Sequence record: ON922919
Reading direction: 5' to 3' (one strand)
Length of the DNA: 64,000 nucleotides
From: Escherichia phage vB_EcoM_PD205
In this document: in pieces, positions 3,108 to 46,779 of the stretch
Layout: each line of letters begins with the position of its first letter
How positions within the stretch are numbered: position 1 is the stretch's first letter
Notes under the pieces: generated by a model
What the model was told of the DNA's origin: nothing
What the model saw: the letters and a program-made list of their open reading frames with translations, nothing else
Databases searched by the model: none
Position numbers and translations under genes: made by a program

Positions 3108-3298
3108 TTGTATAACTTCCTTAAGCCCATATAGGCTTCTTTTTCAGTCATATTAAATTCAGGTCGACCTGCAATATAGAGATCTAGCTCTTTTAATGCT
3201 AACTCATGGTCACGTTGTTCTTTCTTGGTTCGGCAATGTCCACATTTACCATCCCATTGGGATACATAGCCTTTACCACATTTACATTGTTGGTTCAT
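3104..3298 (-). CDS. hypothetical zinc-ribbon protein
   Basis: 64 aa; CxC...CxxC arrangement (CKCGKG...CGHC); ATGA-type overlap with neighbours. Confidence 0.35.
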   Translation of the reverse strand: MNQQCKCGKGYVSQWDGKCGHCRTKKEQRDHELALKELDLYIAGRPEFNMTEKEAYMGLRKLYK

Positions 3299-32088: not shown

Positions 32089-32148
32089 ACTGGCTTACTG
32101 TAGAGTAAGTTACCTATATACGATATAAGTTTGAATAGGAAACATGCT

Positions 32149-35100
32149 ATGTCAACATTTGACCGTCTGGCAGGTTTCGCAGACAGCATCACTAATGCTA
32201 AGCAAGTCGATGTCTCTACTGCAACCTCCCGGAAGCAAGCTGCACAGGGGCAAAGCCCTTTCCAATTAACCCCAGATAATGCTTACAATCTCCAGACTGG
32301 ACGAGTAGGTAATCTTGGAATCGGTGCATACGAACCAGGTTCACTTCAGGCAGATTTCACTCAAGCCTCCCCCTTAGAAATCATTAATAAGTATGGTAAT
32401 GAGCAAGGTCTACAGATTCTTAATAGTCGAGCTAATGCTGCTGATGCTGTACGTCAGGACTTATCTAAACAACGTACTAACGCAGAAGCATTTGGCGATA
32501 TTCTTTCTGGTGTTGGTCTTGGTGTTGCTAATACCCTTGGGGGCATTGCTGCTCTTGGCACAGGCTTGGTCAATGATAATGCCGGGGCATCCATTGCTTC
32601 CGGGCTTGACTGGTTGAATAAAGGTGTACACAACCTACAGTCTGATGCATTGAATGCTCGTCGTAATGTAGTACAGAACCAGAACGTAATATCTGCACAG
32701 GAGAATGATAAACTCTATAAGCAGGATATTGCTAAAGGAGAAAGTGAACTCGTTGCTTCCCTGTCTCGAATTGGTCGTGATGCTTATGATTCTGTCACTA
32801 ATACACTTGATAATGGCATGGCTGCTACAGATGGCCTGGCTGAGGGCGTTGGTTCTCTGTTTACTGGTGGTCCACTAATTCGTGGTGTATCTGCACTCGG
32901 TAAGGTAATGGTAGGTGGTGATAAAGCTGTTAAGGGCATTACCTTAGCTGCTGAGTTAGGTTCACGTCCTGCACGGATTGCACAGTCTGCTGGGCGTATT
33001 GCTGCGCCTGCTATAGCAATTGGTGGTATGGAAGCTGGTGGTGCATACCAACAAACTGCCAATGAAATTATGGAAATGCCATTCAGTGAACTGGCTGCTA
33101 AATCTCCTGTATACCAACAGCATATTAAAGACGGTCTGTCTCCTGAAGAAGCACGACGTCAGACTGCATCTGAAACAGGTATCACTGCTGCTGGCTTAAC
33201 TGCTCCAGTTGCTGCTCTTACTGCTCCACTGGTATCCAAGTTTGAACTTAACCCACTCAAGGTAGGTTCACTGGCTGGTGCTGGTTCTAACATGCTGCGT
33301 GAGACTGTAGAAGAAGGTATCCAGTCTGGTACTAGCCAGCTTGCACAGAACAAGGCAATTCAGGGTAATGTAGATGCTAAGCGTGATTTGCTTAAAGGCG
33401 TGGGTGAACAAACCGGTCTTGGTGCATTGTATGGCTTCGGTTCTGCTGGAGTTGCTCAAGCTCCTGGTACAACTGTTAAGGCTGCTGGTGCTGCCGTTGG
33501 TCCTGCTGTACGTACTACCCTGGCTGGTGCTTCTCTGGCTGGTAAGGCACTAGCAAAAGTAGCTTCCCCTATTACTACCATCCTGGTTCAACGTGGTGAA
33601 GAAGTTGCTAAGCGTAATGAACAAGCATCCCCTGTATCAGACGCTACAGTTAACGCTGCTGCACAGGAAGCCACTGCTCAGGCAGAACAAGCACAAGCAA
33701 CTGTTCAGGAAGCAGTAGATGCAATGGATATTTCTCCTGAAGAGAAAACTGCTGCTACTCAGTATGCTGCTGATTTAACTCAGGCAATGAAGTTTGACCC
33801 TGTAGAACTGGAGCAAGCTAGTCCGACAATCCGTGAAGCTGTTTCTGGTTCTACTAACCGTGTTGAAGCTATTCAGAAGATGGCTGACCTGGTTAATACT
33901 GCTGAAGACCCTAACGTTCAAATGGAAGCTGCAATCCAGATGTATGACAACATCATGTCTATGGATAGCTTCATTAACCGTGACCCAGGTGCATTAGCTA
34001 ATCTAGAACAAGGTTCTCCTGCTGCTGCAATCGTAGACCAGTTCTCCGGACTGATGGCTAACGTTCAGAATACACCGAAGGTACTCCGTGCATTCCGTGC
34101 TATCCATTCCATGATTCAGGAACAGGCAGAAGCAGGTAAACTGAAAGCCACTGAAGAAGCTAATCAAGCCCAGGCAAACAACATTGCTATGGCTGCTGAT
34201 ATGTCTCCAGAAGTACTGGATGCAGATTCAGTTAACATGGTTCTGAAACACGCAAGTGAAGGTAAGATTACACTTGGGAATCGTCAGCGTGCTGCCCTGC
34301 AATCTGCTGCTGCTTTATTGCAAGGAGCACGAGAATTTGACGCTAAAGCAGAAGAACTAGGCTTACGTCCTCAAGACATTGTTAGTAAACAGATTAAAAC
34401 CGACGAATCTCGTTCTAATGAAGGTCAGTACTCTGCGTTGCAACACGCTAAACGCATTCGTTCTGCGTACAACTCTGGTAACTTCGATTTGGCTTCCGCT
34501 TATCTCGACGACTTTATGAAGTTCGCCCAGCACATGCAGAATAAGGTCGGAGCGTTGAATGAGCATCTGATTTCTGGGAATGCGGATAAGAATAAGTCTG
34601 TCCATTATCAGGCTCTTACTCCCTCGCGTGAATGGGTACGTAGTCGTACTGGCCTCGGTGTCAATCCGTATGATACCAAGTCTGTTAAGTTTGCCCAGCA
34701 AGTAGGACTGGAAGCCAAGACCGTAGCTGATATTGCTAACGCACTTGCTACGGCTTACCCGGAGCTTAATGTTTCTCATGTGAAGGTTACCCCATTGGAT
34801 TCACGTCTGGACAAGCCTGCTGCCCAGGTAGTTAAAGAGTTCCGTCAGGGCAATCTTGATGCTGCTCAATCCCAACAGACCAATGAACCAGTGAATCAGG
34901 TTGATGAAACTCCTGTTACGAAACAGGAACCAGTTACCCCTACTGTACAGACTAAACCCTCTGTTAGTGAAGCTGTTAAAACAGAACCTACTAATAAAGA
35001 GTCTAATCCACAGACTGCAAAAGAACCTGAGAACCAGTCTGAAAAACAGGATACCATCAAGCAGTCTACTGAATCTGAAAGGGATGCTTATGTAAAAGAG

Positions 35101-38100
35101 AATACTATTTCCCAGGATACTCTTAATAAGTACGGTGACCGTAGGGAGAGTCCGTGGCTCTTTGCAGATGGTACTGTTGTTGGTTCTAATGGTGACCATA
35201 TCAGCCTGTCTGATGTATTTGGTCATGATGGTTATCGTGATATGTCATTAGATACTGGTGCTATTCGCTCCACTTTCTACAAAGGAAGTGAGCAACCATT
35301 TGTATCATTACAACTGTTTGATAATCAAAAGCTGACTCCTGAACAATTTAATACTGTTCAATCATTCGTAGAAGCAAACAATGCACTGATTCAGGTTGGT
35401 GTAGATACGTCTGGGCGTAATACCAATAACGTTAAGAAGGAAGAAGTATCACTGGCTCAACTGAAAGCAGACTATACCGTTGGTGGTAAACCTCTATCGG
35501 AAATGGAAACAGTGTTCCCTGTCTATAACAATGACAAGACACCGAACCAGTTCCTGAAAGCATTTACCCTTCCGGAAGAACCTAAGTCTCGTACCATTGG
35601 TTCTGAATCTCCTTTGACCGATGTTAAGAAAGCACTATCCTCTGTTGCTCGCTTTGAGGCATTCACTCAAAAAGAAAATAACGCTCTCACAAGTGATGTG
35701 ATTAAGCGTTACCAGGACTTGTTTGATTTTGGTGAAACTCTGAAGACTACCTTGTCTGACCGTCTTGCTAAGTTCCTTGCTAATAAGAATGTTGGTAAAC
35801 GCTTTGCAGAAGGTACTGAGGCTAATCGTTGGGTAGGTGGCAAACTGCTTAACATCGTAGAGAAAGATGGAGACACCTTTAAGTTCAATGACCAGTTGTT
35901 AGAGACTGCTGTACTTGCTGGTCTGCAATGGCGACTGACTGCTACACAGAATGCTGCCATTAAAGACATGAAAGACGTAGCTGCTATTACTGGTGTAGAA
36001 GCATCCCTGTTACCTGAAGGTATTCTGGCTGACTTCGAGAATGCTCAGACTCTGGTGGAAGCCACTAACTCTCTGGCTCAAAAGATTGAATCTTATTGGG
36101 GTTTGAATCGTAATCCTAATGCACCCCTGGGTTATACCAAGGGTATCCCAATGGCAATGGCTACAGAGATTCTGTCTTCTCTCATTGAGATGGGTGAAGT
36201 TAAAGAGTCTATGCTGGATGTGTCTGAGATTGACCCAGAATCCAATAAGACTGTTGGTCTGTATACCATTGAGAAGCTGGATGATAACGATGCCATTAAC
36301 AAATTCCCTACTGCTATTGAGGAAGCTGTCCTCGTAGAACCAGTAGAGAAACTGTACCTGGGTGATGATATTCCTTCCGTGGCTCAAACTCAGTTACGTA
36401 ACCCGGCTGTCAAGAATACCCCGGAACAGAAAGCTGCTCTTAAAGCAGAACAGGCTACTGAGTTCCGTGTACATATGCCGATGGTTAACTTCTACGAAGC
36501 ATTGGGTCGTGACAACATTCTGGAACTAATGGGTGCTGGTGCTCTTACCCCAGAATTGCTGAATGTGAATACTGCTAAATCTCTGGAAGGTAAAAACCTA
36601 TCCGTGTCTATGGCATATGATTCCTTGTTTGGTGTAATCAATCAGATTAAGGAACAAGAGAATGGACTGGATACACCTATCCACTATGGCTACAACATGA
36701 CCCGTGTAGGTCGTATGCAGATGCTTGGTAAGAACAACCCACAATCCAGCAAGCTGGTACGTGAAGCAATCCTACCAACTTTCTCTACCATCGACTTGAG
36801 TAATGAAAACAGCCAAACGTTCTCTGACTTCCAGCTTGGACTGGCTCAGGCATTGGGTATCAAAGTTCATAAAATGTCCCGTGAAGTTATGTCGGATGAG
36901 CTGACTAAAGCTCTGGAAGGTAAATTGAAACCTGCCGTTGATATGATGGTTGAGTTTGATAAGTCTGGGCACTTACCTACTGATGCTGTGGATATTCTGA
37001 AGACCTCTTTGGGTAATGATAAATCATTTGTAGCTCTCATGGCTCTGATGGAGTATGCCCGTTACTTGAACAGTGATGACCGAGCCAACTTTAATACTCC
37101 ACTGTACGTTGAAGCTGATGGTGTAACCAACGGGCCAATCAACGCAATGGTATTAATGACTGGTGGTAAGTTCACTTCAGACTGGATTAAGAATACTGCT
37201 AAGGGTGGTTTGTTCTTCGGTAAAGCAGGTAAGACCATGAACGAGCATCATTCGCATGAGGACAGTGTTGACCTGTATGAAGCATCCACTAATAGTCTAC
37301 AACAGGCACTGAATGAATTACGTAGTACTTATCGTAACAACGTTCCTGTTACGAACCAGATGAAGCATCTTCAGAAGTTAATGGACCTGTTCATTAAAGA
37401 CTTCAATCTTAATGAAGATGGTACTCTGGACCTGAAACGTGGTATCGCTAAAAACCCACTGACTATTACCATCTATGGCTCAGGTGCTCGTGGTATTGCA
37501 GGCAAGATGGTTAGTGCAATTACTGACACCATCTACGAACGCTTCAGTGACGTTCTACAAGCCCGTGCTGCTGACCCTAGCATTTCCCCAGCTATGGCTA
37601 TGTTTGGTAAGGAGGCTGCGTCTGAGGCCGATGCTCAGGCTATGCTGGATACTTTCCTTACTTCTATGGAAGCACTGACTGGTAATGTTCCAGTTATGCG
37701 TAAAGGTGAACTGTCTATTCAACAAGCAGAGGGTGCTCTGTCTGGTAAGTTAGACCCCCAGAAGTTTACCGTATCTGGCAATGCTCTGAAGAACCTGCAA
37801 GAGAATATGCTTCACCTGTTCGTTGAACCAATGCGTACTGGTATCCGAAATACCGTTGGCGAAGGTCTGATGCACTCTACTGAGAACTTGCAGAAGGCTA
37901 CTCAGATTCAATCTCTGGTATTGCAGGATATGTTCCAACAAGCAGTACAGGCTAAGCTGACAGAAAAAGAAAAAGACCCAACATGGAAGAAAGGTGATTT
38001 CTTAACACAGAAAGAACTAAATGAAATCCAGGCTTCATTATCTCCACTGGCTCCAATGATTGAGACTGGTTCTCAGACTTTCTACATTGCTGGTAGTGAG

Positions 38101-41100
38101 AATACTGATGTTGCTAACCAAGTATTGGCTACTAACTTAGATGACCGTATGCGTGTGCCAATGAGCATTTATGCTCCTTCACAGGCAGGTGTTGCAGGTA
38201 TTCCATTTATGACCATCGGTACTGGTGATGGCATGATGATGCAGACCCTTTCTACTATGAAAGGTGCTCCGAAGAATACCCTGAAAATCTTTGATGGTAT
38301 GAACATTGGCATTAATGACATCACTGATGCAAGCCGTAAAGCTAATGAGGCTGTATATACTTCCTGGCAGGGCAATCCTATCAAGAATGTTTATGATTCC
38401 TTTGCTAAGTTCATGAAGAATGTAGACTTCAGCAAACTGTCTGATGAAACCAAACAAGCTATCGCTAAGTCTGCTCTGGAGTATGACCAGCGTGAGGGTG
38501 CTACTGATGACCTGTTACGTGTTGGTGCTGAACAGATTGAACGTAACCTGCGTAACATTGCTTTAGGTGTAGATATTCGTCACAAGGTAATGGACCAGGT
38601 ACAAGTCACTGTTGACCAGATGGCTGCTGTAGGTGCTCCTTATGTGAACAACGGTAAAATCTCTTTGGAAGGTCTGACTGTAGACCAGCAAGTAGCTAAG
38701 CTGAACGAACTGTTTGATGCTGAATTAAACAAGCGTCGTGATGCAGTACGTGCTGCTAAAGCAGAACCAGTGAAAGAAGTACCAGCTATGGAACAGGTTG
38801 GTCGTGTACTGAAGTCTGGTGTACGTCTGCTGTCTAATACTGCTATCGCTAAACTGGCTAAAGAGATGTCTCCTGAACAACAAGCAGTATTAAAAGAAAT
38901 ACAGAAATCCCTTGCTGCCAAAGACTATAAGGTTGTTTACGGTACACCTTCTCAACTGGATGCTTATGCTATTGAGAAGAACATTACTCGCCCAGCACCG
39001 GAAGATATTGAAGCTGCTGAAGCAGGTAATGCATATGGCTGGACTAACTTTGAAGATAAGACCATCTACTTAGTTACCCCTTCCTTAGAGACTCTGGTTC
39101 ATGAATTGGTACATGCTTCTACTTTTGAATCTGTACTGGCTCACTATGAGGGTACTCCTAATGAAGCAGTCCAGAACATTGAAGACCTGATGAATCAGTT
39201 CCTTACTCTGGATGTTAAGGATGAATCCCCGGCAGTACGTGAAGCATATGCTGATGCACTGAATACCATTAATGGACACCTGTCTAATGGCTTCATTGAA
39301 CCAGCGATGGCTAAAGCTGCTGCGTTGAATGAGTACATGGCATGGGGCTTAACCAACCGTGAACTGATTGGTAAGCAGAAGAAAACTACTGCACTGAAAA
39401 CTATGGTTCAGGCTGTATATGAAGCAATCAAACGTCTGGTATTCGGACGTAAGAAAGCTCCAGCTAATGCAGATGATATGTTCTCTGGCTTACTGTTTAA
39501 CTCTGCTGTAGTAATGCGTGGACAAGCTCCTACTGCTGCTGTAGCCAAAGACACTACCCTGTTCCATAACAAAGCGTATGGTGAAAATACTCGTCTGGAA
39601 GGGCTAGGGAAAACCTTTGATAAGTTGATTACTGACTACATTGGTTCAGAACCAGTACAGCAAGTAATTCGTAAAGGTAAGTTCTCTGATGCAGTAGTGA
39701 ATGCAACTAAAGTAACTCGTGATGTTCAGGCACATGGCTTCACCATGAATATGCAGGAACAGCGTCTATTTACTAACATTGTTGCTGCACTAGCTACCGA
39801 GGCTGCTATTAACCCTGCTGCTTTGGCTCGTGCACAGGAATACTACACACATGTTACTAAGAACCTGACCGTTGAAGCATTCATGGCTGACCCGGATAGT
39901 ACTAACCCTGCTGACCGTTACTATGCACAGCAGAAGTTCGATACCATCATGGGTGCTAACAACATTGAGTTTGATGCACAAGGTCGTTCTTCCTTACTGC
40001 CTACCTTTGTTGGACTGGCAATGGTAAGTGAAGAGGTACGTAAAGTACTGGCTGATATTCCTGTTATGAAAGTAGATAAGAAATCAGGCAATACCGTTGA
40101 TGCAATGCTGACTAACATCGGTACTGCTGCAATGGCTAGTCTGAATGCTCGTGTAGCAGGCGATACTAAAGCTACTAACGTACAGGAAGGTATGGATGCA
40201 CTGGCTCAGACAATCATGCAGACCAGCCTTAATGCAGAATCCTTCTATGATTCCGTTGCTACTCCTACTGGTAATGCTATTGACCGTGCTAACCAGTATC
40301 TGGTGGACTCTATTGATGTACTGTCTACCCGTGCTTTGGAAGGTGCTCGTGAAGTTGCAGCTAATACCAAGAATCCATTGGTTAAAGGTGCTGCTCATGC
40401 TGCACAACTGATAGCTGCTATCGCTACAGAGAAGAATGGTTCAATCGTAGCTGAAGGTGTTATGGCTGCAATGAACCAAGGTAAAGTATGGCAACCTTTC
40501 CATGACCTGGTTAATGACTTAACTGGTCGTACTAAGAGCAATGCTTCTGTTTATGATTTGATTAAAGCAGTACGTGCACAGGTACAGGCTGACCGTCAGC
40601 AATTCCGTGAGCATTTACCTACCACTATCGCATCTAAGTTCAGTCGTAAACTGACTAATGATGAGTGGAGAGCAATGCATACTGGTATGGGTAAGACTGA
40701 CTTAGCTGTTCTGCGTGACACTATGTCTCTGGATGAAATCCGTGACCTGCTGACTGACCAGAAGATTGTTGACCGTGAGGTTAATAAACTGGAAGCAGAT
40801 TTGCAGAAACAAGCCGGACGTAACTGGCCTCTGATTAACCGTAAATCTAAGCAACTAGCTCAGTATATGATTAACGGTACGGTTGGTAATAACCTGCTGC
40901 GTAATGCTACTGCAATTTCTCGCTTGCTGGGGGAACGTAAGACTACACGTTCTGTTGTAGATGTAGCTCAACTGGATAAATTGATTACCCTGTATGCACT
41001 GGAAGCAATGAGTAAGACTGACCGTGAGATGTTATCTTCACTGGCTCAGACAGAAATTGAAGGTATGGATTTTGCTACTTCTTATCTGGTTGGTCAGCGT

Positions 41101-42903
41101 AAAGATGAAATGGCTAAAGCTAAGTCTGATAGTCGTGCAACCTTGAACCAGTACAAAGGGTATATCCCTAGCGAGAACAAACAGGGAGTTAACCTGATTG
41201 TTGCTGAAGATAGTCAGTTCTCTGATTTGATTGAGAAATCCTATGTACGTCTGGGTACTTATCAGGGTAGTTCTGCTAACCGTGGTGCAGCACGTAGTTA
41301 CTACTTTGCACCGGTACAGGCACAGGCTCCATTCTCACAGGGTATCCTACAGAACGTTCGCAATACTGCTGGTGGTGTAGACCTTGGTACAGGCTTTACG
41401 ATGGGAACCATGGTAGCTGGTCGTATCACTGACAAACCTTCCGTAGACCGTATTACTAAAGCACTGGCTCGTGGTGAACGTGGTAATGAACCACTGCTGC
41501 CTGTATATGATGCCAATGGTAATGTGATTGCTTACGAGCAATCTATTGACCCTAATATGCTGAAGCACATTGAAGGTGAGAACCATCTTGCTCGTGCAAT
41601 TGGTGTATGGCGTGGTCGTCAAGTAGAAGAAGCTAAGGCCCAGCGTTTCAACGATATTCTGATTGAGAATCTGCACAGCATGTATGAGAACGACATTAAG
41701 ATGTCTGCTTCTAATAAGTCCCAGTACGTTAACCTTCTTGGTTCTAAACTGGACCCAGTAACTGCCGATGCTCTTAAACTGATGAACAGTGAAACTCGTC
41801 AGAAAGCAGAAAGTCTGTTTGGTCCGGGTGAGTTGTGGGTACGTCGTGACATGCTTAATGATGCTTTAGGTTATCGTGCAGCTTCTGTGGGTGATGCCTG
41901 GTCTGGTAATTCTCGTTGGTCCCCAGAAACACTGGATACCTTCAAGAAAGCTATGCTTGGTGTCTTCGGTAACCGTGCCTATAAGTATGTAATGGGTGGT
42001 GAGAATCTGGTTCAAAACTTAGTTAAAGAAGCTAAGACTCTGATTGTAGTTAAATCAGTAGTCGTACCTGCTGTTAACTTCCTGGCTAACCTTTACCAGA
42101 TGGTTGCTCGTGGTGTACCTGTTAAGAATATTGCTAAGAGCATTCCACAGAAGACTGCTGAGATTAACCAGTATCTGAAATCTCGTCTGCGTCAGGTAGA
42201 TGCAGAAGCAGAGTTACGTGCAGCTACTAACCCGAACCAGATTCGTAAGCTGAAGGCCGAGATTCAGTCCATCACGGATAGCCATAAGCGTTTAAGTATC
42301 TGGCCTCTGCTGGAAGCTGGCGAGTTCTCCTCAATTGCAGATGCTGGTATTGGACGTGATGACATCCTGATTACTGAAGGTAAACTTCACGAGTACATGG
42401 ATAAGCTGGCTGATAAGCTGCCTAAGTCTGTACGTAACGCAGGACGATATGCACTTATTACTAAGGATACTGCTCTGTTTCAGGGTATCCAGAAGACGGT
42501 TGAATACTCTGACTTTATCGCTAAGGCAATCATCTATGATGAACTGACTCAGCGTAAAGGTAAGACTCGTGAAGAAGCACTTGGACGTGTAACGGAAGAG
42601 TTCATTAACTATGACCGTTTGCCAGGTCGCTTCCGTGGGTATATGGAAAGTGTTGGTCTGATGTGGTTCTACAACTTTAAGATTCGTTCTGCAAAAGTTG
42701 CAGTGTCCATGATTCGTAACAACCCAGTCCATGCTGCTATGGCTATGTTGGCCCCAACTCCTACCATGTTTGGTAATGTTGGTCTGCCTATTCAGGATAA
42801 CATCTTTAGCATTGCTGCACAGGGTAACCTTGGTTACTCCTTCGGTTTCGGTCAAGGTTTACGTGCCCATAACCTTAACCCTTGGCTCAACCTTACTAAC
42901 TAA
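32149..42903 (+). CDS. virion-encapsidated RNA polymerase (N4 vRNAP-like giant protein, about 3584 aa)
   Basis: ORF track 32131..42903 begins at TTG; ATG 32149 with AGGA RBS chosen; 10.8 kb single ORF; central region carries T7-like motifs (KRGIAKNPLTITIYGSG motif B-like, MTIGTGDGMMMQT motif C-like). Confidence 0.85.
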   Translation: MSTFDRLAGFADSITNAKQVDVSTATSRKQAAQGQSPFQLTPDNAYNLQTGRVGNLGIGAYEPGSLQADFTQASPLEIINKYGNEQGLQILNSRANAADAVRQDLSKQRTNAEAFGDILSGVGLGVANTLGGIAALGTGLVNDNAGASIASGLDWLNKGVHNLQSDALNARRNVVQNQNVISAQENDKLYKQDIAKGESELVASLSRIGRDAYDSVTNTLDNGMAATDGLAEGVGSLFTGGPLIRGVSALGKVMVGGDKAVKGITLAAELGSRPARIAQSAGRIAAPAIAIGGMEAGGAYQQTANEIMEMPFSELAAKSPVYQQHIKDGLSPEEARRQTASETGITAAGLTAPVAALTAPLVSKFELNPLKVGSLAGAGSNMLRETVEEGIQSGTSQLAQNKAIQGNVDAKRDLLKGVGEQTGLGALYGFGSAGVAQAPGTTVKAAGAAVGPAVRTTLAGASLAGKALAKVASPITTILVQRGEEVAKRNEQASPVSDATVNAAAQEATAQAEQAQATVQEAVDAMDISPEEKTAATQYAADLTQAMKFDPVELEQASPTIREAVSGSTNRVEAIQKMADLVNTAEDPNVQMEAAIQMYDNIMSMDSFINRDPGALANLEQGSPAAAIVDQFSGLMANVQNTPKVLRAFRAIHSMIQEQAEAGKLKATEEANQAQANNIAMAADMSPEVLDADSVNMVLKHASEGKITLGNRQRAALQSAAALLQGAREFDAKAEELGLRPQDIVSKQIKTDESRSNEGQYSALQHAKRIRSAYNSGNFDLASAYLDDFMKFAQHMQNKVGALNEHLISGNADKNKSVHYQALTPSREWVRSRTGLGVNPYDTKSVKFAQQVGLEAKTVADIANALATAYPELNVSHVKVTPLDSRLDKPAAQVVKEFRQGNLDAAQSQQTNEPVNQVDETPVTKQEPVTPTVQTKPSVSEAVKTEPTNKESNPQTAKEPENQSEKQDTIKQSTESERDAYVKENTISQDTLNKYGDRRESPWLFADGTVVGSNGDHISLSDVFGHDGYRDMSLDTGAIRSTFYKGSEQPFVSLQLFDNQKLTPEQFNTVQSFVEANNALIQVGVDTSGRNTNNVKKEEVSLAQLKADYTVGGKPLSEMETVFPVYNNDKTPNQFLKAFTLPEEPKSRTIGSESPLTDVKKALSSVARFEAFTQKENNALTSDVIKRYQDLFDFGETLKTTLSDRLAKFLANKNVGKRFAEGTEANRWVGGKLLNIVEKDGDTFKFNDQLLETAVLAGLQWRLTATQNAAIKDMKDVAAITGVEASLLPEGILADFENAQTLVEATNSLAQKIESYWGLNRNPNAPLGYTKGIPMAMATEILSSLIEMGEVKESMLDVSEIDPESNKTVGLYTIEKLDDNDAINKFPTAIEEAVLVEPVEKLYLGDDIPSVAQTQLRNPAVKNTPEQKAALKAEQATEFRVHMPMVNFYEALGRDNILELMGAGALTPELLNVNTAKSLEGKNLSVSMAYDSLFGVINQIKEQENGLDTPIHYGYNMTRVGRMQMLGKNNPQSSKLVREAILPTFSTIDLSNENSQTFSDFQLGLAQALGIKVHKMSREVMSDELTKALEGKLKPAVDMMVEFDKSGHLPTDAVDILKTSLGNDKSFVALMALMEYARYLNSDDRANFNTPLYVEADGVTNGPINAMVLMTGGKFTSDWIKNTAKGGLFFGKAGKTMNEHHSHEDSVDLYEASTNSLQQALNELRSTYRNNVPVTNQMKHLQKLMDLFIKDFNLNEDGTLDLKRGIAKNPLTITIYGSGARGIAGKMVSAITDTIYERFSDVLQARAADPSISPAMAMFGKEAASEADAQAMLDTFLTSMEALTGNVPVMRKGELSIQQAEGALSGKLDPQKFTVSGNALKNLQENMLHLFVEPMRTGIRNTVGEGLMHSTENLQKATQIQSLVLQDMFQQAVQAKLTEKEKDPTWKKGDFLTQKELNEIQASLSPLAPMIETGSQTFYIAGSENTDVANQVLATNLDDRMRVPMSIYAPSQAGVAGIPFMTIGTGDGMMMQTLSTMKGAPKNTLKIFDGMNIGINDITDASRKANEAVYTSWQGNPIKNVYDSFAKFMKNVDFSKLSDETKQAIAKSALEYDQREGATDDLLRVGAEQIERNLRNIALGVDIRHKVMDQVQVTVDQMAAVGAPYVNNGKISLEGLTVDQQVAKLNELFDAELNKRRDAVRAAKAEPVKEVPAMEQVGRVLKSGVRLLSNTAIAKLAKEMSPEQQAVLKEIQKSLAAKDYKVVYGTPSQLDAYAIEKNITRPAPEDIEAAEAGNAYGWTNFEDKTIYLVTPSLETLVHELVHASTFESVLAHYEGTPNEAVQNIEDLMNQFLTLDVKDESPAVREAYADALNTINGHLSNGFIEPAMAKAAALNEYMAWGLTNRELIGKQKKTTALKTMVQAVYEAIKRLVFGRKKAPANADDMFSGLLFNSAVVMRGQAPTAAVAKDTTLFHNKAYGENTRLEGLGKTFDKLITDYIGSEPVQQVIRKGKFSDAVVNATKVTRDVQAHGFTMNMQEQRLFTNIVAALATEAAINPAALARAQEYYTHVTKNLTVEAFMADPDSTNPADRYYAQQKFDTIMGANNIEFDAQGRSSLLPTFVGLAMVSEEVRKVLADIPVMKVDKKSGNTVDAMLTNIGTAAMASLNARVAGDTKATNVQEGMDALAQTIMQTSLNAESFYDSVATPTGNAIDRANQYLVDSIDVLSTRALEGAREVAANTKNPLVKGAAHAAQLIAAIATEKNGSIVAEGVMAAMNQGKVWQPFHDLVNDLTGRTKSNASVYDLIKAVRAQVQADRQQFREHLPTTIASKFSRKLTNDEWRAMHTGMGKTDLAVLRDTMSLDEIRDLLTDQKIVDREVNKLEADLQKQAGRNWPLINRKSKQLAQYMINGTVGNNLLRNATAISRLLGERKTTRSVVDVAQLDKLITLYALEAMSKTDREMLSSLAQTEIEGMDFATSYLVGQRKDEMAKAKSDSRATLNQYKGYIPSENKQGVNLIVAEDSQFSDLIEKSYVRLGTYQGSSANRGAARSYYFAPVQAQAPFSQGILQNVRNTAGGVDLGTGFTMGTMVAGRITDKPSVDRITKALARGERGNEPLLPVYDANGNVIAYEQSIDPNMLKHIEGENHLARAIGVWRGRQVEEAKAQRFNDILIENLHSMYENDIKMSASNKSQYVNLLGSKLDPVTADALKLMNSETRQKAESLFGPGELWVRRDMLNDALGYRAASVGDAWSGNSRWSPETLDTFKKAMLGVFGNRAYKYVMGGENLVQNLVKEAKTLIVVKSVVVPAVNFLANLYQMVARGVPVKNIAKSIPQKTAEINQYLKSRLRQVDAEAELRAATNPNQIRKLKAEIQSITDSHKRLSIWPLLEAGEFSSIADAGIGRDDILITEGKLHEYMDKLADKLPKSVRNAGRYALITKDTALFQGIQKTVEYSDFIAKAIIYDELTQRKGKTREEALGRVTEEFINYDRLPGRFRGYMESVGLMWFYNFKIRSAKVAVSMIRNNPVHAAMAMLAPTPTMFGNVGLPIQDNIFSIAAQGNLGYSFGFGQGLRAHNLNPWLNLTN

Positions 42904-43323: not shown

Positions 43324-43704
43324 TCAGATTGTACAACCACCACCATCACAGGTATTGTTTTCTGCAAAGGAAGCCAGAGCTTTAGCAGTCTCTTCTTTCT
43401 CATGCAGTGCCTGACGTAGCAGGTAACCCTCTAATTCCCAAATCTTATTGAATGCATTTTCATATGCATACTGACGACCTTTTTGCTCATCATAGATAGT
43501 CGGGTCTACACAAGCAGATACGCCTTCAACTTTGAATCCATTTTCCAGGATGATAATGCAATGGGTTACCAGACCCAGGTTAGCCAAATCATCTGCTGGG
43601 ATTGCTGAAGGGTCAACGAATGCAGACTTCACTGCGTCAGCACCATTAAAATAGTAGACGCTCTTAATCTTAGCTTCGATTGCTTCTTTACTTACTGTTG
43701 CCAT
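43324..43704 (-). CDS. hypothetical protein (possibly N4 gp49-like, by position next to vRNAP)
   Basis: ORF track 43324..43716; ATG 43704 with GAGG RBS preferred; family assignment from memory and position only. Confidence 0.4.
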   Translation of the reverse strand: MATVSKEAIEAKIKSVYYFNGADAVKSAFVDPSAIPADDLANLGLVTHCIIILENGFKVEGVSACVDPTIYDEQKGRQYAYENAFNKIWELEGYLLRQALHEKEETAKALASFAENNTCDGGGCTI

Positions 43705-43760
43705 TATTAGCCTCATAGAGTGGTTTGAGTTTGTACTTAAACATGATTGTGCTTACTAAT

Positions 43761-43791
43761 ACTCAAATAAAAAAGTCCCTCCGAAGAGGGA
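43761..43791 (-). terminator. rho-independent terminator (AGTCCCTC-CGAA-GAGGGACT; RNA loop UUCG) with U6 tract
   Basis: 8 bp perfect stem 43772..43791; minus strand continues UUUUUUAUUUGA; would terminate minus-strand transcripts coming from the tRNA-like island. Confidence 0.65.
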
Positions 43792-44587
43792 CTTAGTAGC
43801 TTTAACGCAGCTAACGAGGCTTGTATGAGTGCTGGGATTTGCAACTCCCAGCATATCCCCACCGTTTTAGCTGACGGCAAACAGAGATTGATAGTCTCAG
43901 AGGATACTTTACTCAGGCTAGGATTTAAGGAGTTCCTATTCTCCAGCGAAATTCCCGTCGAGGGGAATAACAATACAATAGCAGCCACTGGACTGTCTTA
44001 CCAGTGTTGTCTTTAGAGTGCAATGCAATCAGGACTATGTTACTGCTAAATAGGTTGAGTCATGCCAGACTTTAACTGGCTCCTTCTTCGCAATCCTTAC
44101 ATACCCCTACATAATTATTGCGTTAAGCTTTTTTGTTTAAGTTTAAGTGAAGGCGTTCTTGCTGACTCATAATAGGGTGGGCGTTTGACGAATGACTAGT
44201 TCGTTACTACCCGTTTGCCATAAGTACCTGGCGACTTTGGTTTGAGGTGGGAGTCCGATTCCTGTACAGCCTTACCGTTCACACATTGGCAGCGTATCTA
44301 GAATAGCACTTCCAGCAACTGGATTTAACTGTTACACCTCAAATCTGGTAGGGGCGTCCAGAAGTCTCATCTGGTACTTACGCTGTCGTATGGTTACGAC
44401 TTACCCCCATAGTTAGTTGCTCGGATCACCCCCTTGACTAAAGTGACCTTTGAGGGGCTACGCTACACTATGTGTTTCATCCCATTACAGAGAATCATCA
44501 GGCGTATTAGTTGGTCACCCCGGATACCTACTTGCCGAGCATTGGTATCGTATGGCTCGTCCAATTAGAAGTAGCACTGTTGCAGTC

Positions 44588-44668
44588 GTCACTGCTCATA
44601 GGTAAGGATTCGAACCTTACAATACCATTGGTTTGCAACGTCGCTGTACCATTTCGCGTTCTATGCAA
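44588..44668 (-). tRNA. tRNA-like element (canonical T-arm, imperfect acceptor stem; anticodon not determined)
   Basis: Minus-strand TAAGG-TTCGAAT-CCTTA T-arm (plus 44597..44613); putative acceptor halves pair only over 5 central bp; cloverleaf not confirmed by eye. Confidence 0.25.
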
Positions 44669-44681
44669 TGCTACTTTGAAT

Positions 44682-44760
44682 TGGTTACCAGTGAGGGATT
44701 CGAACCCCCGGTTGGAGTCTATAGCTTACCGCAGCAGCCCTCCAATCTAGCGGTGTCACA
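44682..44760 (-). tRNA. tRNA-like element with encoded 3' CCA (anticodon not determined)
   Basis: Minus-strand GGGGG-TTCGAAT-CCCTC T-arm (plus 44693..44709) followed by ACTGGTA-A-CCA; matching 5' acceptor strand TACCAGT is found only 121 nt upstream, so the structure is non-canonical or interrupted. Confidence 0.3.
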
Positions 44761-44807
44761 CTTAGTCCAAACTTGAACATGTCAAGCCATCTCGTGCAAC
44801 TGGTAAT

Positions 44808-44880
44808 TGGTTCCGGCGTCTGGACTCGAACCAGAACACTCATGCCGTGCACGACACTAGTACCTACACCGGAATAAATT
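44808..44880 (-). tRNA. tRNA-like element with encoded 3' CCA (anticodon not determined)
   Basis: Minus-strand TCTGG-TTCGAGT-CCAGA T-arm (plus 44819..44835) followed by CGCCGGA-A-CCA; nearest complementary 5' acceptor (TCCGGTG) gives only about 63 nt; partial duplicate of the 3' region (CGTCTGGAC) at 44929..44937. Confidence 0.3.
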
Positions 44881-44992
44881 GCCAGGGATTCCACCTGGCT
44901 CCATCTGTTTTTATAGTCACTCAGATATCGTCTGGACTTGCTGTGGAGTGACGCACCATCTCACTCTTGAATGTTAACCCATTCCCAGCCCC

Positions 44993-45040
44993 ACAACACA
45001 CTCTACGGTTAAGATTATCGCGTGTGTTGTATGGTCTTGC
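44993..45040. repeat. inverted repeat, 9 bp stem (ACAACACAC ... GTGTGTTGT) with 30 nt loop
   Basis: Read directly; stem 44993..45001 pairs with 45032..45040. Confidence 0.5.
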
Positions 45041-45046
45041 TGGTCA

Positions 45047-45127
45047 CAACAGGTAAGAGCATTTAACAGAAGATAGGTCTGATTGCCTCGGATAATTTCT
45101 CAGTAGCCTAAATGCTCTTACCTGTTG
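45047..45127. repeat. 19 bp perfect inverted repeat (CAACAGGTAAGAGCATTTA ... TAAATGCTCTTACCTGTTG) with 43 nt spacer
   Basis: Verified base by base: 45047..45065 is the reverse complement of 45109..45127. Confidence 0.75.
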
Positions 45128-45412
45128 GTTCCCCGTTTCTAATACACGGACGGGGACACTCCATGGTCGTTTGATAATCAGGACGACTCACTCCTGACTG
45201 ACGCTTGGCTTATTAGGCTGCCATCAGAACAACATCATCGTTTGCATTTATGTTATTGGTTCGTTTCTAAAAAACCGCATAATCGCTTACGAAAACTATC
45301 AAAGAGTACACTAGCACAGGTAGCTACCCTGCCGTCTTCTCTATTTACACCGGCTACAGTGTAAACCTCCGCACGTTAGCCTAATGTACTCATTGATAGG
45401 ATGTCAGTAGGT

Positions 45413-45482
45413 CGGGGGCTGGATTCGAACCAGCGAGAGAAGTAGCGACCATCTGCACATGCCTACGTGCTACCCCGACCAT
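45413..45482 (-). tRNA. probable tRNA gene (about 70 nt; anticodon uncertain, candidates GCU or CGC depending on loop register)
   Basis: Minus strand: 7 bp perfect acceptor stem (GTCGGGG / CCCCGAC), 4 bp D-stem (GCAC / GTGC) with GG-containing D-loop, perfect T-arm GCTGG-TTCGAAT-CCAGC; anticodon stem imperfect and variable loop short, so needs tRNAscan-SE or ARAGORN confirmation. Confidence 0.45.
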
Positions 45483-45657
45483 TATAATAGGAGGGAGGGG
45501 ACGAGTCCTCCCTTTATACCCTATATTGCATGTAAGACCTAACAATTCGATGCTGTAGGTAGCTATGCTATCCGACATTTAACCCAGCCCATATAGGGGC
45601 TTATGTGATTAAAATGCTCAACATTGAGCGGTTAGTTTGATAAGGGATCTGAAGCCT

Positions 45658-45727
45658 TATCCCAAAGATACTAACCTTTGGGATATAGCCTATCATTCAG
45701 AAATGGCCCCTATAGGGAGAGGCCATT
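45658..45727. repeat. two adjacent strong hairpins (10 bp stem 45658..45685; 7 bp stem 45702..45727 whose loop reads CCTATAGGGAGA)
   Basis: TATCCCAAAG-ATACTAAC-CTTTGGGATA and AATGGCC-CCTATAGGGAGA-GGCCATT read directly; loop of second hairpin matches the T7 promoter initiation core CTATAGGGAGA. Confidence 0.5.
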
Positions 45728-46299
45728 GATTAACCCGAATGTTGCTTTACATTTGCTGTGATAACCTATTCTTAAAATAGTCTACCTGACGGATGGGCAT
45801 AAACCCTAGCGTCAGTGCCATACGGCAAAGATTAAGTTAAGAAAGGTTATGATAGGAGTTCCTATCTCAAAGGATTCTGACAGAACCCTTCACGATATTA
45901 ACTACTCTTTTTCAATGCTTCAACTTCACCCTCTTTATACCAAGCATACGGTATTAAGATTTTGCAGCCTTATGAATCAATGTGGAATGCTTTGTTTCCT
46001 TCAGCAGGTTCTCCACCCATGAAAGAACTAACCTTTCCATTGAGCCAGTGAATAGTAAATTTGTTCATATTAACCCCGGTTGAACCAATGGACTTCGGAG
46101 AGTATTAAAGCCCACTGGTTCGGTTGTTGTTATTCTGGCGGCTTGTCACCACCGTGTTTACCACTGCATTTCCACAGGATAATGACAGTGATGATAAAAG
46201 CTATGTATGGAGCCGACACGTCTATAATCCTGACCAGTAGTAGCATCAGGACTATAAACACTACCACACCTAGCAGCAGCTTCTGAGCCACCTACCAGA

Positions 46300-46779
46300 T
46301 TAACTACGTTTCAGGCCAGCGAACAGTGAAGGCTTCGCAGCAGGTTTCTCTGCTGGTTCTTCAGCCTTAACTTCCTCCTGCACAACTTCTTCTTGTGCTT
46401 CTGGTTCAGCTACTGCTTCTTCAGGTTCCGGCGTAGAACTCTCGTTCTGACCACCAACTGAGGTCGGGGCATCTACTTTCGGTCCCAGAGGTGCTCCCTC
46501 CTTTACTGATTCAGTAACAACTTGCTCACCAACCTCAGGTTCTGAGGTTGAGTCAACAGGACGATGTTTGGCTTCTTGTGGATTCTTACGAGGACGGCGG
46601 GTCTTCTTCTCTACCAAGGGTGGAGTGTCATCACTATGACCGACCTCTTCATTGATACCAATAGTGGCAGTACCATCTGCATTCACCAGGATATTAATGT
46701 CCCCGGCAAGATTAACTTGTTCATTTACATAAGCTTCAATAGCAGCTTCTACTTCAGACTGGTTCAGAACGATTTGCAT
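46300..46779 (-). CDS. hypothetical protein with highly acidic Pro/Glu-rich C-terminal half
   Basis: 159 aa ORF; first gene after the non-coding island on minus strand. Confidence 0.4.
   Translation of the reverse strand: MQIVLNQSEVEAAIEAYVNEQVNLAGDINILVNADGTATIGINEEVGHSDDTPPLVEKKTRRPRKNPQEAKHRPVDSTSEPEVGEQVVTESVKEGAPLGPKVDAPTSVGGQNESSTPEPEEAVAEPEAQEEVVQEEVKAEEPAEKPAAKPSLFAGLKRS

Follow-up and report, generated by a model that had tools for sequence, protein, structure and literature searches.

Within 900 nt of an N4-like coliphage genome lie four sites that end like tRNAs and have bodies that do not resemble tRNAs, and the question is whether they encode decoding tRNAs, the remains of tRNAs or RNAs of another kind. 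The window, by which we mean the whole 64 kb stretch of DNA analysed, belongs to a Gamaleyavirus and has 90–97% identity to Gamaleyavirus genomes. An earlier note, made from the letters alone, had listed four T-arm motifs on the minus strand, and all of them were recovered, at 45421-45431 (A), 44822-44832 (B), 44696-44706 (C) and 44606-44616 (D). The pattern GGTTCRANTCC has four matches in the 64 kb, all on this strand and within those 900 nt, against an average of 0.23 in shuffles, and four was never reached in 100 of them. Reading out the 3′ ends bore out the statement that two sites encode CCA, these being B and C. As set out below, the four sites are probably genes for non-decoding, tRNA-derived small RNAs, arranged as a mosaic array of cassettes.

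Genomic context and annotation of the array

The array is intergenic, between genes that match N4 gp47 and gp48/49 and beside the vRNAP gene. At the equivalent locus N4 and AL25 carry canonical tRNA-Asn, tRNA-Ser, tRNA-Thr and tRNA-Pro genes (50–77 bits) plus B, and the comparison shows that in the lineage of the window's phage the canonical tRNAs of the N4 locus were replaced by tRNA mimics. The mimics share with the N4 cluster its genomic slot, strand logic, T-loop TTCGA(A/G)T, 7-bp acceptor stems, encoded CCA and tight spacing. Relatives of the phage label the elements inconsistently, as tRNA-Ala, Cys, Ile, Thr, Val, Xle or OTHER, or as tiny hypothetical ORFs; B is tRNA-Undet or tRNA-OTHER in some of them.

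Prediction programs supported A, the one site in the window called by ARAGORN at default settings, and left B, C and D uncalled by default ARAGORN and by Rfam. Across all 64 kb no Rfam tRNA match reached the gathering score (RF00005, 29 bits), and in a permissive scan B, C and D had no match at E<=10. Known large phage non-coding RNAs (GOLLD, ROOL and similar) and other Rfam families had no match in the window or in six homologous loci. A protein-coding origin was also rejected, as the ORFs over B and C and those on the plus strand had no PHROG match; the sole PHROG match there was that of a 29-residue stretch upstream of A to a 40-aa family of unknown function.

Elements B, C and D are structured RNAs under selection

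Element B (44808..44874, minus strand) is a tRNA-like RNA of 66–67 nt whose 3′ end reads TCTGG-TTCGAGT-CCAGA followed by CGCCGGA-A-CCA. Its 5′ acceptor strand had been thought imperfect, but the stem TCCGGTG/CGCCGGA is local and a perfect 7 bp with one G-U. The predicted molecule is a compact three-helix fold that has a canonical T-arm and ends in A73 and an encoded CCA, and in which a single 10-bp arm with a tetraloop replaces the D and anticodon arms. Element C (44682..44805, minus strand) begins 2 nt past the CCA of B and ends in GGGGG-TTCGAAT-CCCTC followed by ACTGGTA-A-CCA. As the earlier note had observed, the 5′ acceptor strand of C is displaced, TACCAGT lying some 117–121 nt upstream of the 3′ strand, and thus C would be a closed molecule of 124 nt (44805..44682), its acceptor stem being TACCAGT/ACTGGTA. 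Two long arms of this molecule are non-canonical, the T-arm is canonical, and A73 precedes an encoded CCA. Element D (44587..44671, minus strand) is an RNA of ~85 nt that ends in TAAGG-TTCGAAT-CCTTA followed by CCTATGA-G-CAG, with no encoded CCA; its outer stem of 10 bp with a 2-nt bulge (CATTGCATAG / CTAT-GA-GCAGTG) encloses a canonical T-arm together with small hairpins.

A complete tRNA top half, with a 7-bp acceptor stem, a 5-bp T-stem with a 7-nt loop (TTCRANY), a discriminator base and CCA, is present in B and C; A differs in its 8-bp acceptor stem and D in its bulged 10-bp stem, and neither encodes CCA. The acceptor stems and CCA ends of B and C are intact in every copy, and U-1 precedes A, B and C. 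No 7-nt anticodon loop, and no 5-bp anticodon arm together with a D-arm, appears in the consensus folds of B, C and D (66, 124 and ~85 nt), which sets them apart from canonical phage tRNAs. The first base pair also differs: canonical tRNAs at these loci start with G1-C72 or C1-G72 (one in KP8, with U1-A72/G73, is the exception), whereas the tRNA-like acceptors have U1-A72 and A73. On the aligned homologues, the consensus folds show that B, C and D retain a predicted closed acceptor-type stem and T-arm, with idiosyncratic hairpins in place of the D/anticodon half. The earlier description of the sites as tRNA-related with non-canonical bodies was right.

Compensatory changes were found at four pairs in B, at five in C, three of them in the acceptor stem, and at four in D (in four sequences, Salmonella phage TR2 among them), counts that are small in keeping with the low diversity of 6–8 distinct sequences. 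These two-sided substitutions in relatives (four to five pairs each) imply selection on B, C and D. The whole 124-nt body of C is conserved and covarying, and B is ~99% identical between phage N4 and the window's phage, with flanks that cannot be aligned.

Three readings of the bodies had been offered: canonical tRNAs missed by eye, tRNAs split by insertions and decayed pseudo-tRNAs. For B to D the first is at odds with the failure of default ARAGORN and RF00005 and with the missing 7-nt anticodon loop. As to insertions, such models came from relaxed ARAGORN (-i -ps) alone, which forced C into a tRNA-Thr(ggt) with a 45-nt intron and D and anticodon stems of 3 bp, and built the T-arm of B into a tRNA-Ile whose intron would measure 305 nt; a permissive Rfam scan found no Intron_gpI or other ribozyme in the window, and the putative intron sequence of C is a conserved part of its covarying helices. 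Decay into pseudo-tRNAs, as remnants of an N4-type cluster, agrees with the canonical tRNAs of the homologous N4 locus and with the gain and loss of cassettes among close relatives, but the helices preserved by two-sided changes, a B that is near-invariant across genera, and the 7-bp acceptor stems and CCA ends that no copy of B or C has lost make it very improbable. These comparisons show B, C and D to be under apparent selection and neither decayed pseudogenes nor intron-split tRNAs. Their status as selected, non-decoding tRNA-like RNAs corrects the inconsistent annotations across N4-like genomes.

Element A

Element A (45407..45480, minus strand) was the one site that had seemed to fold into a near-complete cloverleaf. 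ARAGORN at default settings calls a tRNA-Ala(cgc) at 45409..45480, and a minimum free energy fold also gives the element; the anticodon arm is mismatched, and the best Rfam match, to tRNA-Sec with 30.5 bits in a permissive scan, falls short of the gathering score, 47. The 8-bp acceptor stem of A includes a perfect 5′ strand of its own; A also has a D-stem of 6 bp with a 4-nt loop, and a weak anticodon stem whose loop has the usual U33/R37 pattern in neither register. The 3′ end is GCTGG-TTCGAAT-CCAGC followed by CCCCGACC, and CCA is not encoded. Just 13 Gamaleyavirus records carry A, and in two of these it is annotated as tRNA-Ala. Comparison with EC1-UPM shows A as a precise ~84-nt insertion, that is, a presence/absence cassette, and its variants show a single G-U change, a single A-C mismatch and no compensatory pair.

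Alone of the four sites, A may be a decoding tRNA, an unusual one with a tRNA-Sec-like 8/5 geometry. Irregular tRNAs of 8/4, 9/3 and tRNA-Sec-like types are known as allo-tRNAs (PMC5389517), and A resembles tRNA-Sec and these in its extended 8-bp acceptor stem and 6-bp/4-nt D-arm; its branch, however, is 8/5 and not 8/4, it has no long variable arm and its anticodon stem is poor, while B to D fall wholly outside the class. A broader version of this idea takes the sites for true decoding tRNAs of unusual build that predictors miss, A being a tRNA-Ala or tRNA-Ser of 8/5 type and C a tRNA-Thr that carries an insertion. Besides the default ARAGORN call of A, it can draw on relatives, where stretches of this region are annotated as tRNA-Ala, Cys, Ile, Thr or Val, and on irregular 8/4 tRNAs known from phages (PMC5389517). 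Since those annotations contradict each other, no Rfam tRNA match reaches the gathering score, the consensus folds of B to D have no 7-nt anticodon loop, and A combines a mismatched anticodon stem with a missing U33/R37 pattern, we regard it as improbable.

A tmRNA-like tag module between A and B

The interval between A and B contains a tmRNA-like module (45300..45130, minus strand) that the earlier note does not mention. Its 5′ domain, GATAGTTTTCGTAAGCGATTATGCGG..AGAAAC (45246..45300), is near-invariant over 41 diverse homologues and continues as an A-rich single strand, ..CATAAAT, up to a resume codon; the match to the ARAGORN resume consensus is cataaatgcaaacgatga. In Jersey-like siphoviruses a sigma-70-type promoter, TTGACA-17-TAGATT, puts the 5′ end of the RNA at AGATAGTTTTCG. 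The tag frame (45210..45245, minus strand) reads GCA AAC GAT GAT GTT GTT CTG ATG GCA GCC TAA TAA, that is, a resume codon GCA in a frame of 10 codons for ANDDVVLMAA, closed by double stops. An in-frame TAG stands seven codons upstream, with no start codon between it and the tag. The Rfam model tmRNA_permuted matches the tag with 32.7 bits (E=3e-4, under gathering), and ARAGORN with -ps80 reports the same peptide.

The 10-codon frame and its stop are kept at the same place in 125 of 125 homologous copies, which encode 16 different 10-residue tags, all AN[DE]x....[AV]A with the stop in register. Entropy in the tag is three-periodic, at 0.73/0.47/1.13 for the three codon positions, and the TAA is invariant within a variable flank. 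On the 3′ side of the tag, covariation points to two H-type pseudoknots (45130..45200, minus strand). In the first, PKa, the stem GTCAGGA/TCCTGAT has two to four pair types at three pairs among 41 sequences, and the loop GTCG pairs with a downstream CGAC, a pairing that occurs as GTCG/CGAC, CCAG/CTGG, CCGA/TCGG and CCAA/TTGG. In the second, PKb, CATGG/CCGTG is interleaved with CCCCG/CGGGG, and stem 1 covaries (CAC/GTG, CAG/CTG, CAT/ATG; CATGG/CCGTG vs CGTGG/CCATG). As judged from these substitution patterns, the module is shown to be under what appears to be both coding and structural selection.

Unannotated homologues of the module occur in P1, HK620, Ackermannviridae and Jersey-like siphoviruses, and also in Serratia phage 3M, and its defining pattern was found at >120 IMG/VR loci. 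It is present in 657 of 5,426 complete E. coli genomes (~12%), in every case in a plasmid or a prophage-like place, whereas nine exact-pattern matches in a GTDB scan were taxonomically uninformative. An origin as a host ssrA fragment or attP remnant was rejected on this distribution and on the lack of any match to host ssrA. Our search of the literature on tag peptides, tmRNA-like phage RNAs and tRNAs of N4-like phages or Gamaleyavirus found no description of the module; an apparent tmRNA-style degradation tag under coding selection has thus gone unannotated in textbook phages such as P1 and HK620.

The cassettes that follow the tag module

Two hairpin cassettes and a conserved block separate the module from B, all on the minus strand. 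Hairpin H2 (45047..45127) has a 19-bp stem, CAACAGGTAAGAGCATTTA / TAAATGCTCTTACCTGTTG, with a variable insert, and was marked by a spurious Rfam match to MIR1120; other phages keep the stem with compensatory changes, and the insert sometimes bears a T-arm. Hairpin H3 (44938..45029), CAACACAC..GTGTGTTG, is followed by a small hairpin domain, GAGTG-11 nt-CACTC, and then CACAGCA. The H3 cassette is common to unrelated phages, with 92–95% identity to DS8, Segz_1, Webervirus and Ackermannviridae phages, and is missing from the nearest relatives, Bp4 and PD38. The block GTCCAGACGATATCTGAGTGACTATAAAAACAGATGGAGCCAGGTGGAATCCCTGGCAATTTA (44875..44937) always stands ahead of B in B-carrying N4-like phages and is also found inside the single DS8 transcript, with a hairpin GCCAGG..CCTGGC. 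It contains the partial duplicate of a 3′ region noticed earlier, which is GTCCAGACG at 44937..44929.

The order, combination and presence of cassettes vary among related phages, and the tRNA-like cassette that comes after the tag module is not the same from phage to phage; in KP8 and L111, C directly follows the module, ahead of B. To the extent that sequence comparison can tell, the cassettes behave as independent and shuffled units. A closed tRNA-like domain follows the tag module within the same transcription unit in every lineage examined except P1 and 3M, where no convincing domain of this kind was seen before the first canonical tRNA. Its T-arm analogue covaries (GCCGG/CCGGC, GTCGG/CCGAC, AAGG/CCTT) or has a canonical TTCGANT loop; next to it come CNCCACA, an A or a G and, in some cases, CCA. 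In DS8 the whole series is a single unit from promoter to terminator, and ARAGORN called no tRNA in the 1.9-kb stretch examined. In the window the series ends in B, which holds the position of the closed domain of the DS8 transcript. The conserved block and B are also present in N4, where the tag module is absent; the role of B would thus be at least partly independent of the tag.

Relation to tmRNA

The module shares with tmRNA (ssrA) a start-less tag frame with a GCA resume codon after an A-rich AUAAAU and a UAA stop (double in many copies), a 10-codon tag with an AND start and an AA or VA end, and pseudoknots past the tag, together with an associated acceptor/T-arm domain with NCCA. It differs in having two pseudoknots, 3′ of the tag, in place of PK1–PK4. 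The tRNA-like domain, moreover, is self-closed with both acceptor strands 3′ of the tag, and neither encloses the tag nor is split around it. Position 3:70 is C-G in B and C and U-A in A and in the TGTGGTG/CACCACA domain; no module examined carries the G3:U70 that AlaRS requires, and all have U1-A72. No curated tmRNA model (RF00023, RF04321, RF01849-51) was matched at its gathering score, the best scores being 32.7–33.2 bits against 47 for RF04321, and default ARAGORN reported no tmRNA in the window, P1, HK620, 3M, DS8 or KP8.

We considered several ways of joining the tag to an acceptor. A permuted tmRNA with the T-arm of A as acceptor piece, as reported by ARAGORN -ps80, was rejected because A is self-paired and a presence/absence cassette that the majority of phages with the tag do not have. 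A standard tmRNA that would begin upstream of the tag and end at the CCA of B was discarded: the best distal 5′ strand, GCCGGTG, gives poorer pairing than the local strand, and all that relaxed ARAGORN has for it is the tRNA-Ile model with the 305-nt intron. Pairings picked by eye, TCGTGAG/CTCACGA in locus L094 and TTCGTC/GACGAA in locus L119, were not general. An apparent covariation beside AGACG, GGGT:ACCC in P1 vs GATA:TATC in the window, involved differing alignment registers, and a systematic search found nothing. Pairing of the tag RNA, by its 5′ end, with the interior of the downstream tRNA-like domain was rejected too, as duplex energies did not surpass the shuffle level (z −3.1 to +1.8); no significant complementarity that might keep the pieces together was seen.

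A multi-piece phage tmRNA, in which B or another cassette would be aminoacylated, bind SmpB and EF-Tu and bring the tag to stalled ribosomes, the array acting as one machine, is unlikely. The coding selection on the tag frame, the closed tRNA-like domain that comes after the module (P1 and 3M apart), with A/G73 and in many cases CCA, and the permuted tmRNA spanning A and the tag that relaxed ARAGORN offers are what one would expect of it. Both acceptor strands, however, lie 3′ of the tag, which would make the tag a 5′ leader removed by RNase P; G3:U70 is absent, complementarity between the pieces is at shuffle level, A is absent from most tag-carrying phages and N4 has B without a tag.

Processing and possible function

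Under the reading of the array as non-decoding small RNA genes, a single precursor RNA would span it where the middle-gene operon ends, and host tRNA-maturation enzymes would process this precursor, with RNase P cutting at every U1 and the 3′ side being trimmed back to the encoded CCA. The 2-nt spacing of B and C resembles that of tRNA operons. The products would be stable small RNAs for which the tRNA top half is the sole tRNA part needed.

The same marks could serve as tRNA punctuation, the acceptor/T-arm minihelix recruiting RNase P and 3′ trimming enzymes to cut a polycistronic RNA and protect its ends, with RNAs that are themselves functionless. The features kept are those of RNase P and the CCA machinery alone, in bodies that range from 66 to ~190 nt; U-1 precedes A, B and C, the gap between B and C is 2 nt, and the slot after the tag module is filled by varied tRNA-like cassettes across phages. 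We nonetheless hold this reading to be rather unlikely, as body helices are also held by compensatory change (the arm of B, a hairpin of C), B is ~99% conserved between N4 and Gamaleyavirus within flanks that are otherwise unalignable, and the U1-A72/A73 signature, uniform as it is, points to a specific partner.

Returning to selected small RNAs as the preferred reading, it is conceivable, though we put it below even chances, that the module and a tRNA-like partner act on host trans-translation, either by supplying a phage degradation tag or by titrating factors that bind tRNA or tmRNA, such as SmpB, EF-Tu or a synthetase. Somewhat more speculative is a new class of phage tmRNA analogue with inverted layout, the tag domain and two pseudoknots lying 5′ of a self-closed tRNA-like domain, which might append a degron or subvert host trans-translation by a mechanism unlike that of tmRNA and SmpB. 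The predicted domain order, tag 5′ and closed tRNA-like domain 3′, fits neither standard nor permuted tmRNA, which tells against the explanation we favour, and with the tag in this position cleavage by RNase P would part the two. Such a class would spread as cassettes among N4-like podoviruses, P1, lambdoid or P22-like prophages, Ackermannviridae and Jersey-like siphoviruses.

If the module works in trans-translation, phages would carry a ribosome-rescue or tagging RNA of their own with a different topology, which would bear on the routes of tmRNA assembly and on the conflict between phage and host over stalled ribosomes; if it has no such role, its strong coding signature needs another explanation. 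A form of tmRNA that consists of the tRNA-like domain only has been described in mycobacteriophage DS6A (PMC4131195), and B is similar to that RNA in size and layout.

Precedents for the release of non-decoding RNAs by tRNA-like ends are also known. The species 1 and 2 RNAs of phage T4 are stable small RNAs co-transcribed with tRNA clusters, and mascRNA is a tRNA-like processing module; they have tRNA-like ends, are freed by tRNA-processing enzymes and do not decode, as is proposed for the elements described here. To our knowledge neither has any sequence relationship to the cassettes of the window, which differ from both in travelling with a tag-coding module and in being swapped between unrelated phage families.

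Genomic setting of the T-arm cluster

The four textbook T-arms that an earlier note had picked out (sites A to D) were all found on the minus strand between 45480 and 44587. The pattern GGTTCRANTCC has exactly four matches in the 64-kb window, every one on the minus strand (45421-31, 44822-32, 44696-706 and 44606-16); the expected mean was 0.23 per window, and none of 100 dinucleotide-preserving shuffles reached four. The surrounding 2.5 kb matches Gamaleyavirus genomes (N4-like podoviruses, including Bp4, ECBP1, PD38 and PGN829.1) at 90-97% identity, and the ORF-free stretch at 43988-46300 is flanked by minus-strand ORFs that are counterparts of N4 gp47 and gp48/49. Synteny with annotated relatives identifies the ORF at 32131..42903 (+; 3590 aa) as the counterpart of the N4 virion RNA polymerase; this polymerase, of the virion-encapsidated type, is encoded convergently toward the RNA locus.

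Default ARAGORN called only one of the four sites, A, as tRNA-Ala(cgc) at 45409..45480. No Rfam family matched anywhere in the window at gathering score, and a permissive scan of 43700-46400 scored A against tRNA-Sec at 30.5 bits (gathering score 47) and returned no match to B, C or D. The same intergenic locus of N4 and its close relative AL25 carries canonical tRNA-Asn, Ser, Thr and Pro (Rfam 50-77 bits) and additionally a 66-nt 'tRNA-Undet' that is our site B. Annotation of the region in relatives is conflicting (tRNA-Cys, Xle, Thr, Ile, Val, Ala, OTHER, or strings of tiny ORFs), and papers on N4-like phages go no further than repeating tRNA predictions.

Structure and covariation of the T-arm elements

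Element B (44874..44808, minus strand) has a three-helix fold consisting of an acceptor stem of 7-8 bp (TCCGGTG/CGCCGGA), one 10-bp arm with a UGCA tetraloop in place of the D and anticodon arms, and a canonical T-arm followed by A-CCA. Two nucleotides separate its CCA from element C (44805..44682, minus strand). C is 124 nt long and closed on itself; besides its 7-bp acceptor stem (TACCAGT/ACTGGTA) and T-arm it has two long arms of non-canonical form, and it ends in A-CCA. The T-arms of B and C are both followed by a 7-nt strand of the acceptor stem, A73 and CCA, which gives the two encoded CCA ends reported previously. In element D (44671..44587, minus strand) the outer stem is 10 bp long and bulged; the fold also has small hairpins and a T-arm, and it ends without CCA. 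None of these three folds contains a 7-nt anticodon loop.

Among few distinct homologues, B showed four compensatory pairs, with UA to CG and CG to UA changes in the arm; KP8 has the T-stem GTTGG/CCAAC where most copies have TCTGG/CCAGA. Five were found for C, including hairpin and T-stem changes (acceptor variants TACCAGT/ACTGGTA, TATCAGT/ACTGATA and TACTGGT/ACCAGTA), and four for D, again with few distinct homologues, Salmonella phage TR2 among them. B is ~99% identical in N4, yet its flanks are unalignable, and cassette order varies between phages, C preceding B in KP8 and in locus L111. These two-sided helix changes and the differing order indicate that B, C and D are independent RNA genes under selection rather than the decayed pseudo-tRNAs proposed as one option. 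The suggestion of intron-interrupted tRNAs fared no better: the introns modelled by relaxed ARAGORN (45 nt in C, 305 nt in the T-arm of B) rest on 3-bp stems, and the permissive Rfam scan gave no ribozyme support for either.

Element A resembles tRNA-Sec in stem geometry (8-bp acceptor stem, 6-bp D-stem with a 4-nt loop, 5-bp T-stem) but lacks the long variable arm, and its anticodon stem is mismatched. It was found in 13 Gamaleyavirus genomes only, two of which annotate it as tRNA-Ala, and comparison with EC1-UPM shows it to be a precise insertion of ~84 nt (45403..45487, minus strand; junction CCTATTAT/../GACATCC). Its variants comprise one G-U change, one mismatch and zero compensatory pairs; A may be an odd decoding tRNA. 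Just upstream of A, 29 residues encoded at 45483..45569 (minus strand, within ORF 45390..45578) match phrog_37481 (40 aa, E=1.8e-16, unknown function), which may be a genuine micro-protein or else an ORF repeatedly mis-called over non-coding RNA.

A tmRNA-like tag module between A and B

The more surprising component is a stretch of ~190 nt (45300..45130, minus strand) that the earlier note had missed. The top Rfam match of the region was tmRNA_permuted (45213..45315; 32.7 bits, E=3e-4, below gathering), essentially ..CAUAAAU GCA AAC GAU GAU GUU GUU CUG AUG GCA GCC UAA UAA, and ARAGORN at 80% stringency reported the tag ANDDVVLMAA followed by two stops. A 10-codon frame from GCA to the stop is fixed in position in all 125 copies compared, which encode 16 different peptides, including ANDDVVLMAA (window), ANDDLMMVAA (P1), ANEEMYLAVA (HK620) and ANDEQFLAVA. 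Column entropy is three-periodic (0.73/0.47/1.13 at codon positions 1/2/3), variation in the last two codons is almost confined to position 3, and the TAA after the tag is invariant, the following six bases being highly variable. In the window sequence the frame is not preceded by a start codon; seven codons before it there is an in-frame TAG. Two H-type pseudoknots 3' of the tag both covary: the first has three stem positions with 2-4 pair types and loop/downstream pairings GTCG/CGAC, CCAG/CTGG, CCGA/TCGG and CCAA/TTGG, and the second varies as CAC/GTG, CAG/CTG and CAT/ATG, and as CATGG/CCGTG versus CGTGG/CCATG. Judged from sequence, the module has the anatomy of the mRNA-like domain of tmRNA.

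Unannotated homologues were identified in a range of unrelated enterobacterial phages: P1 (between dmt and tRNA-Asn; L003 2486-2681), HK620 (late leader, between qut and tQ; L004 2007-2202), Serratia phage 3M (L005 1987-2184) and other Ackermannviridae, siphovirus DS8 (L143 643-1265), Salmonella phage 7-11, and Jersey-like and Webervirus siphoviruses; the conserved pattern retrieved >120 loci from IMG/VR. By BLAST, 657 of 5,426 complete E. coli genomes carry the module, at 555 places on P1-like plasmids and 150 on chromosomes, none of which has a PGAP annotation there. Host ssrA was rejected as the source of these matches, as the ssrA gene itself gave none. An exact-pattern scan of GTDB also matched a contig labelled Priestia aryabhattai (97 kb, a P1-like size) and Parcubacteria, Terriglobia, Bacillota and Saprospiraceae MAGs (L131-L139), which may reflect contamination, mis-binning or chance.

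No Rfam 15 family covers the module or the cassettes, default ARAGORN made no tmRNA call at the tag-module loci run, and we found no description of the tag peptides or such an RNA in the literature searched. A 2014 tmRNA survey lists phage ssrA for mycobacteriophages and Bacillus phage G only (PMC4131195), and a 2025 survey includes 79 unnamed phage sequences found via ARAGORN or BLAST seeds. Within the limits of this literature, Rfam and ARAGORN, the elements are an apparently new variant of tRNA-like RNAs and tmRNA.

Array order and exchange of cassettes

Lambdoid and Jersey-like versions consist of the module, a long hairpin (H2) with a variable insert, and a closed tRNA-like domain (5' strand TGTGGTG, variable body, 3' strand CNCCACA plus A or G, with a 3' CCA in several cases). 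The T-arm analogue of this domain covaries (GCCGG-AGWTCAGCA-CCGGC, GTCGG/CCGAC, AAGG/CCTT, or canonical TTCGANT loops). The entire series in DS8 forms one unit, which begins at a sigma-70-type promoter and ends at a terminator (5' end AGATAGTTTTCG); over the 1.9 kb covered there, ARAGORN called no tRNA. The window follows the arrangement of DS8: first the module, next H2 (45127..45047), next hairpin H3 and a small hairpin domain (45029..44938), and then a conserved block (44937..44875, all minus strand) that starts GTCCAGACGATATC and contains the previously noted 'partial duplicate' of a 3' region. B occupies the slot of the DS8 tRNA-like domain; other N4-like phages have a different tRNA-like cassette after the module, C itself in KP8 and L111. 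The H3 domain (44925..45050, minus strand) is 92-95% identical to DS8, Segz_1, Webervirus and one Ackermannviridae phage and is missing from the nearest relatives, Bp4 and PD38. The cassettes have clearly been exchanged horizontally; no homing endonuclease gene was found near the exchanged A and H3 domain.

Every non-decoding cassette starts with U1-A72 and has A73 (B and C; L001, L002, L128, L142 and others), and G3:U70 is absent from all those compared. In the canonical tRNAs of N4 and KP8 the first pair is G1-C72 or C1-G72; a single KP8 tRNA departs from this, with U1-A72/G73. Extra T-arm elements without an ARAGORN call were noted in P1 (L003 about 3151-3185, after tRNA-Thr; GAGGG-TTCGAAT-CCCTA followed by CGAAGTACCC) and in N4 (L006 2611-2689, between B and tRNA-Pro; TTTTGGT..TTAGG-TTCGAAT-CCTAA-ACCAGAG-T).

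Possible processing and function

The elements are selected structured RNAs that retain the acceptor/T-arm half of a tRNA, and they form a shuffled array with a pseudoknotted tag-coding module among them. U-1 precedes A, B and C, and a 2-nt spacing such as that between B and C is typical of tRNA operons. By analogy with established tRNA biology, the array would form one polycistronic precursor; RNase P would cleave it at each U1, and the 3' ends would afterwards be trimmed back to the encoded CCA. The likeliest reading, at somewhat less than an even chance, is that trans-translation is the target of the tag module and its tRNA-like partner, which would either supply a tag or titrate SmpB, EF-Tu or a synthetase. 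Mycobacteriophage DS6A is known to have a TLD-only RNA, and a similar molecule inhibits tmRNA (PMC4131195). What stands in the way of this trans-translation role is the topology. With both acceptor strands 3' of the tag, RNase P would split the tag part from the tRNA-like part, and we found no complementarity able to hold the two together. The main rival is that the T-arm elements serve purely for punctuation or stability; against it, the bodies covary, B is nearly invariant and the U1-A72/A73 signature is uniform.

The ~600 nt 3' of D (43990..44587, minus strand) is ORF-free, conserved and without a T-arm, and the matching stretch in relatives carries further tRNA-like cassettes. A weak Hammerhead_3 match at 44469..44530, scoring 18.8 bits where gathering requires 48.5, is probably due to chance. 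Inside or just 3' of the gp48-like ORF (43737..43988) lies a strong intrinsic terminator (43773..43794, minus strand; 9-bp stem AAGTCCCTC..GAGGGACTT and T-run), which explains the weak Rfam matches to STnc100, Ysr49 and CRISPR-DR46.
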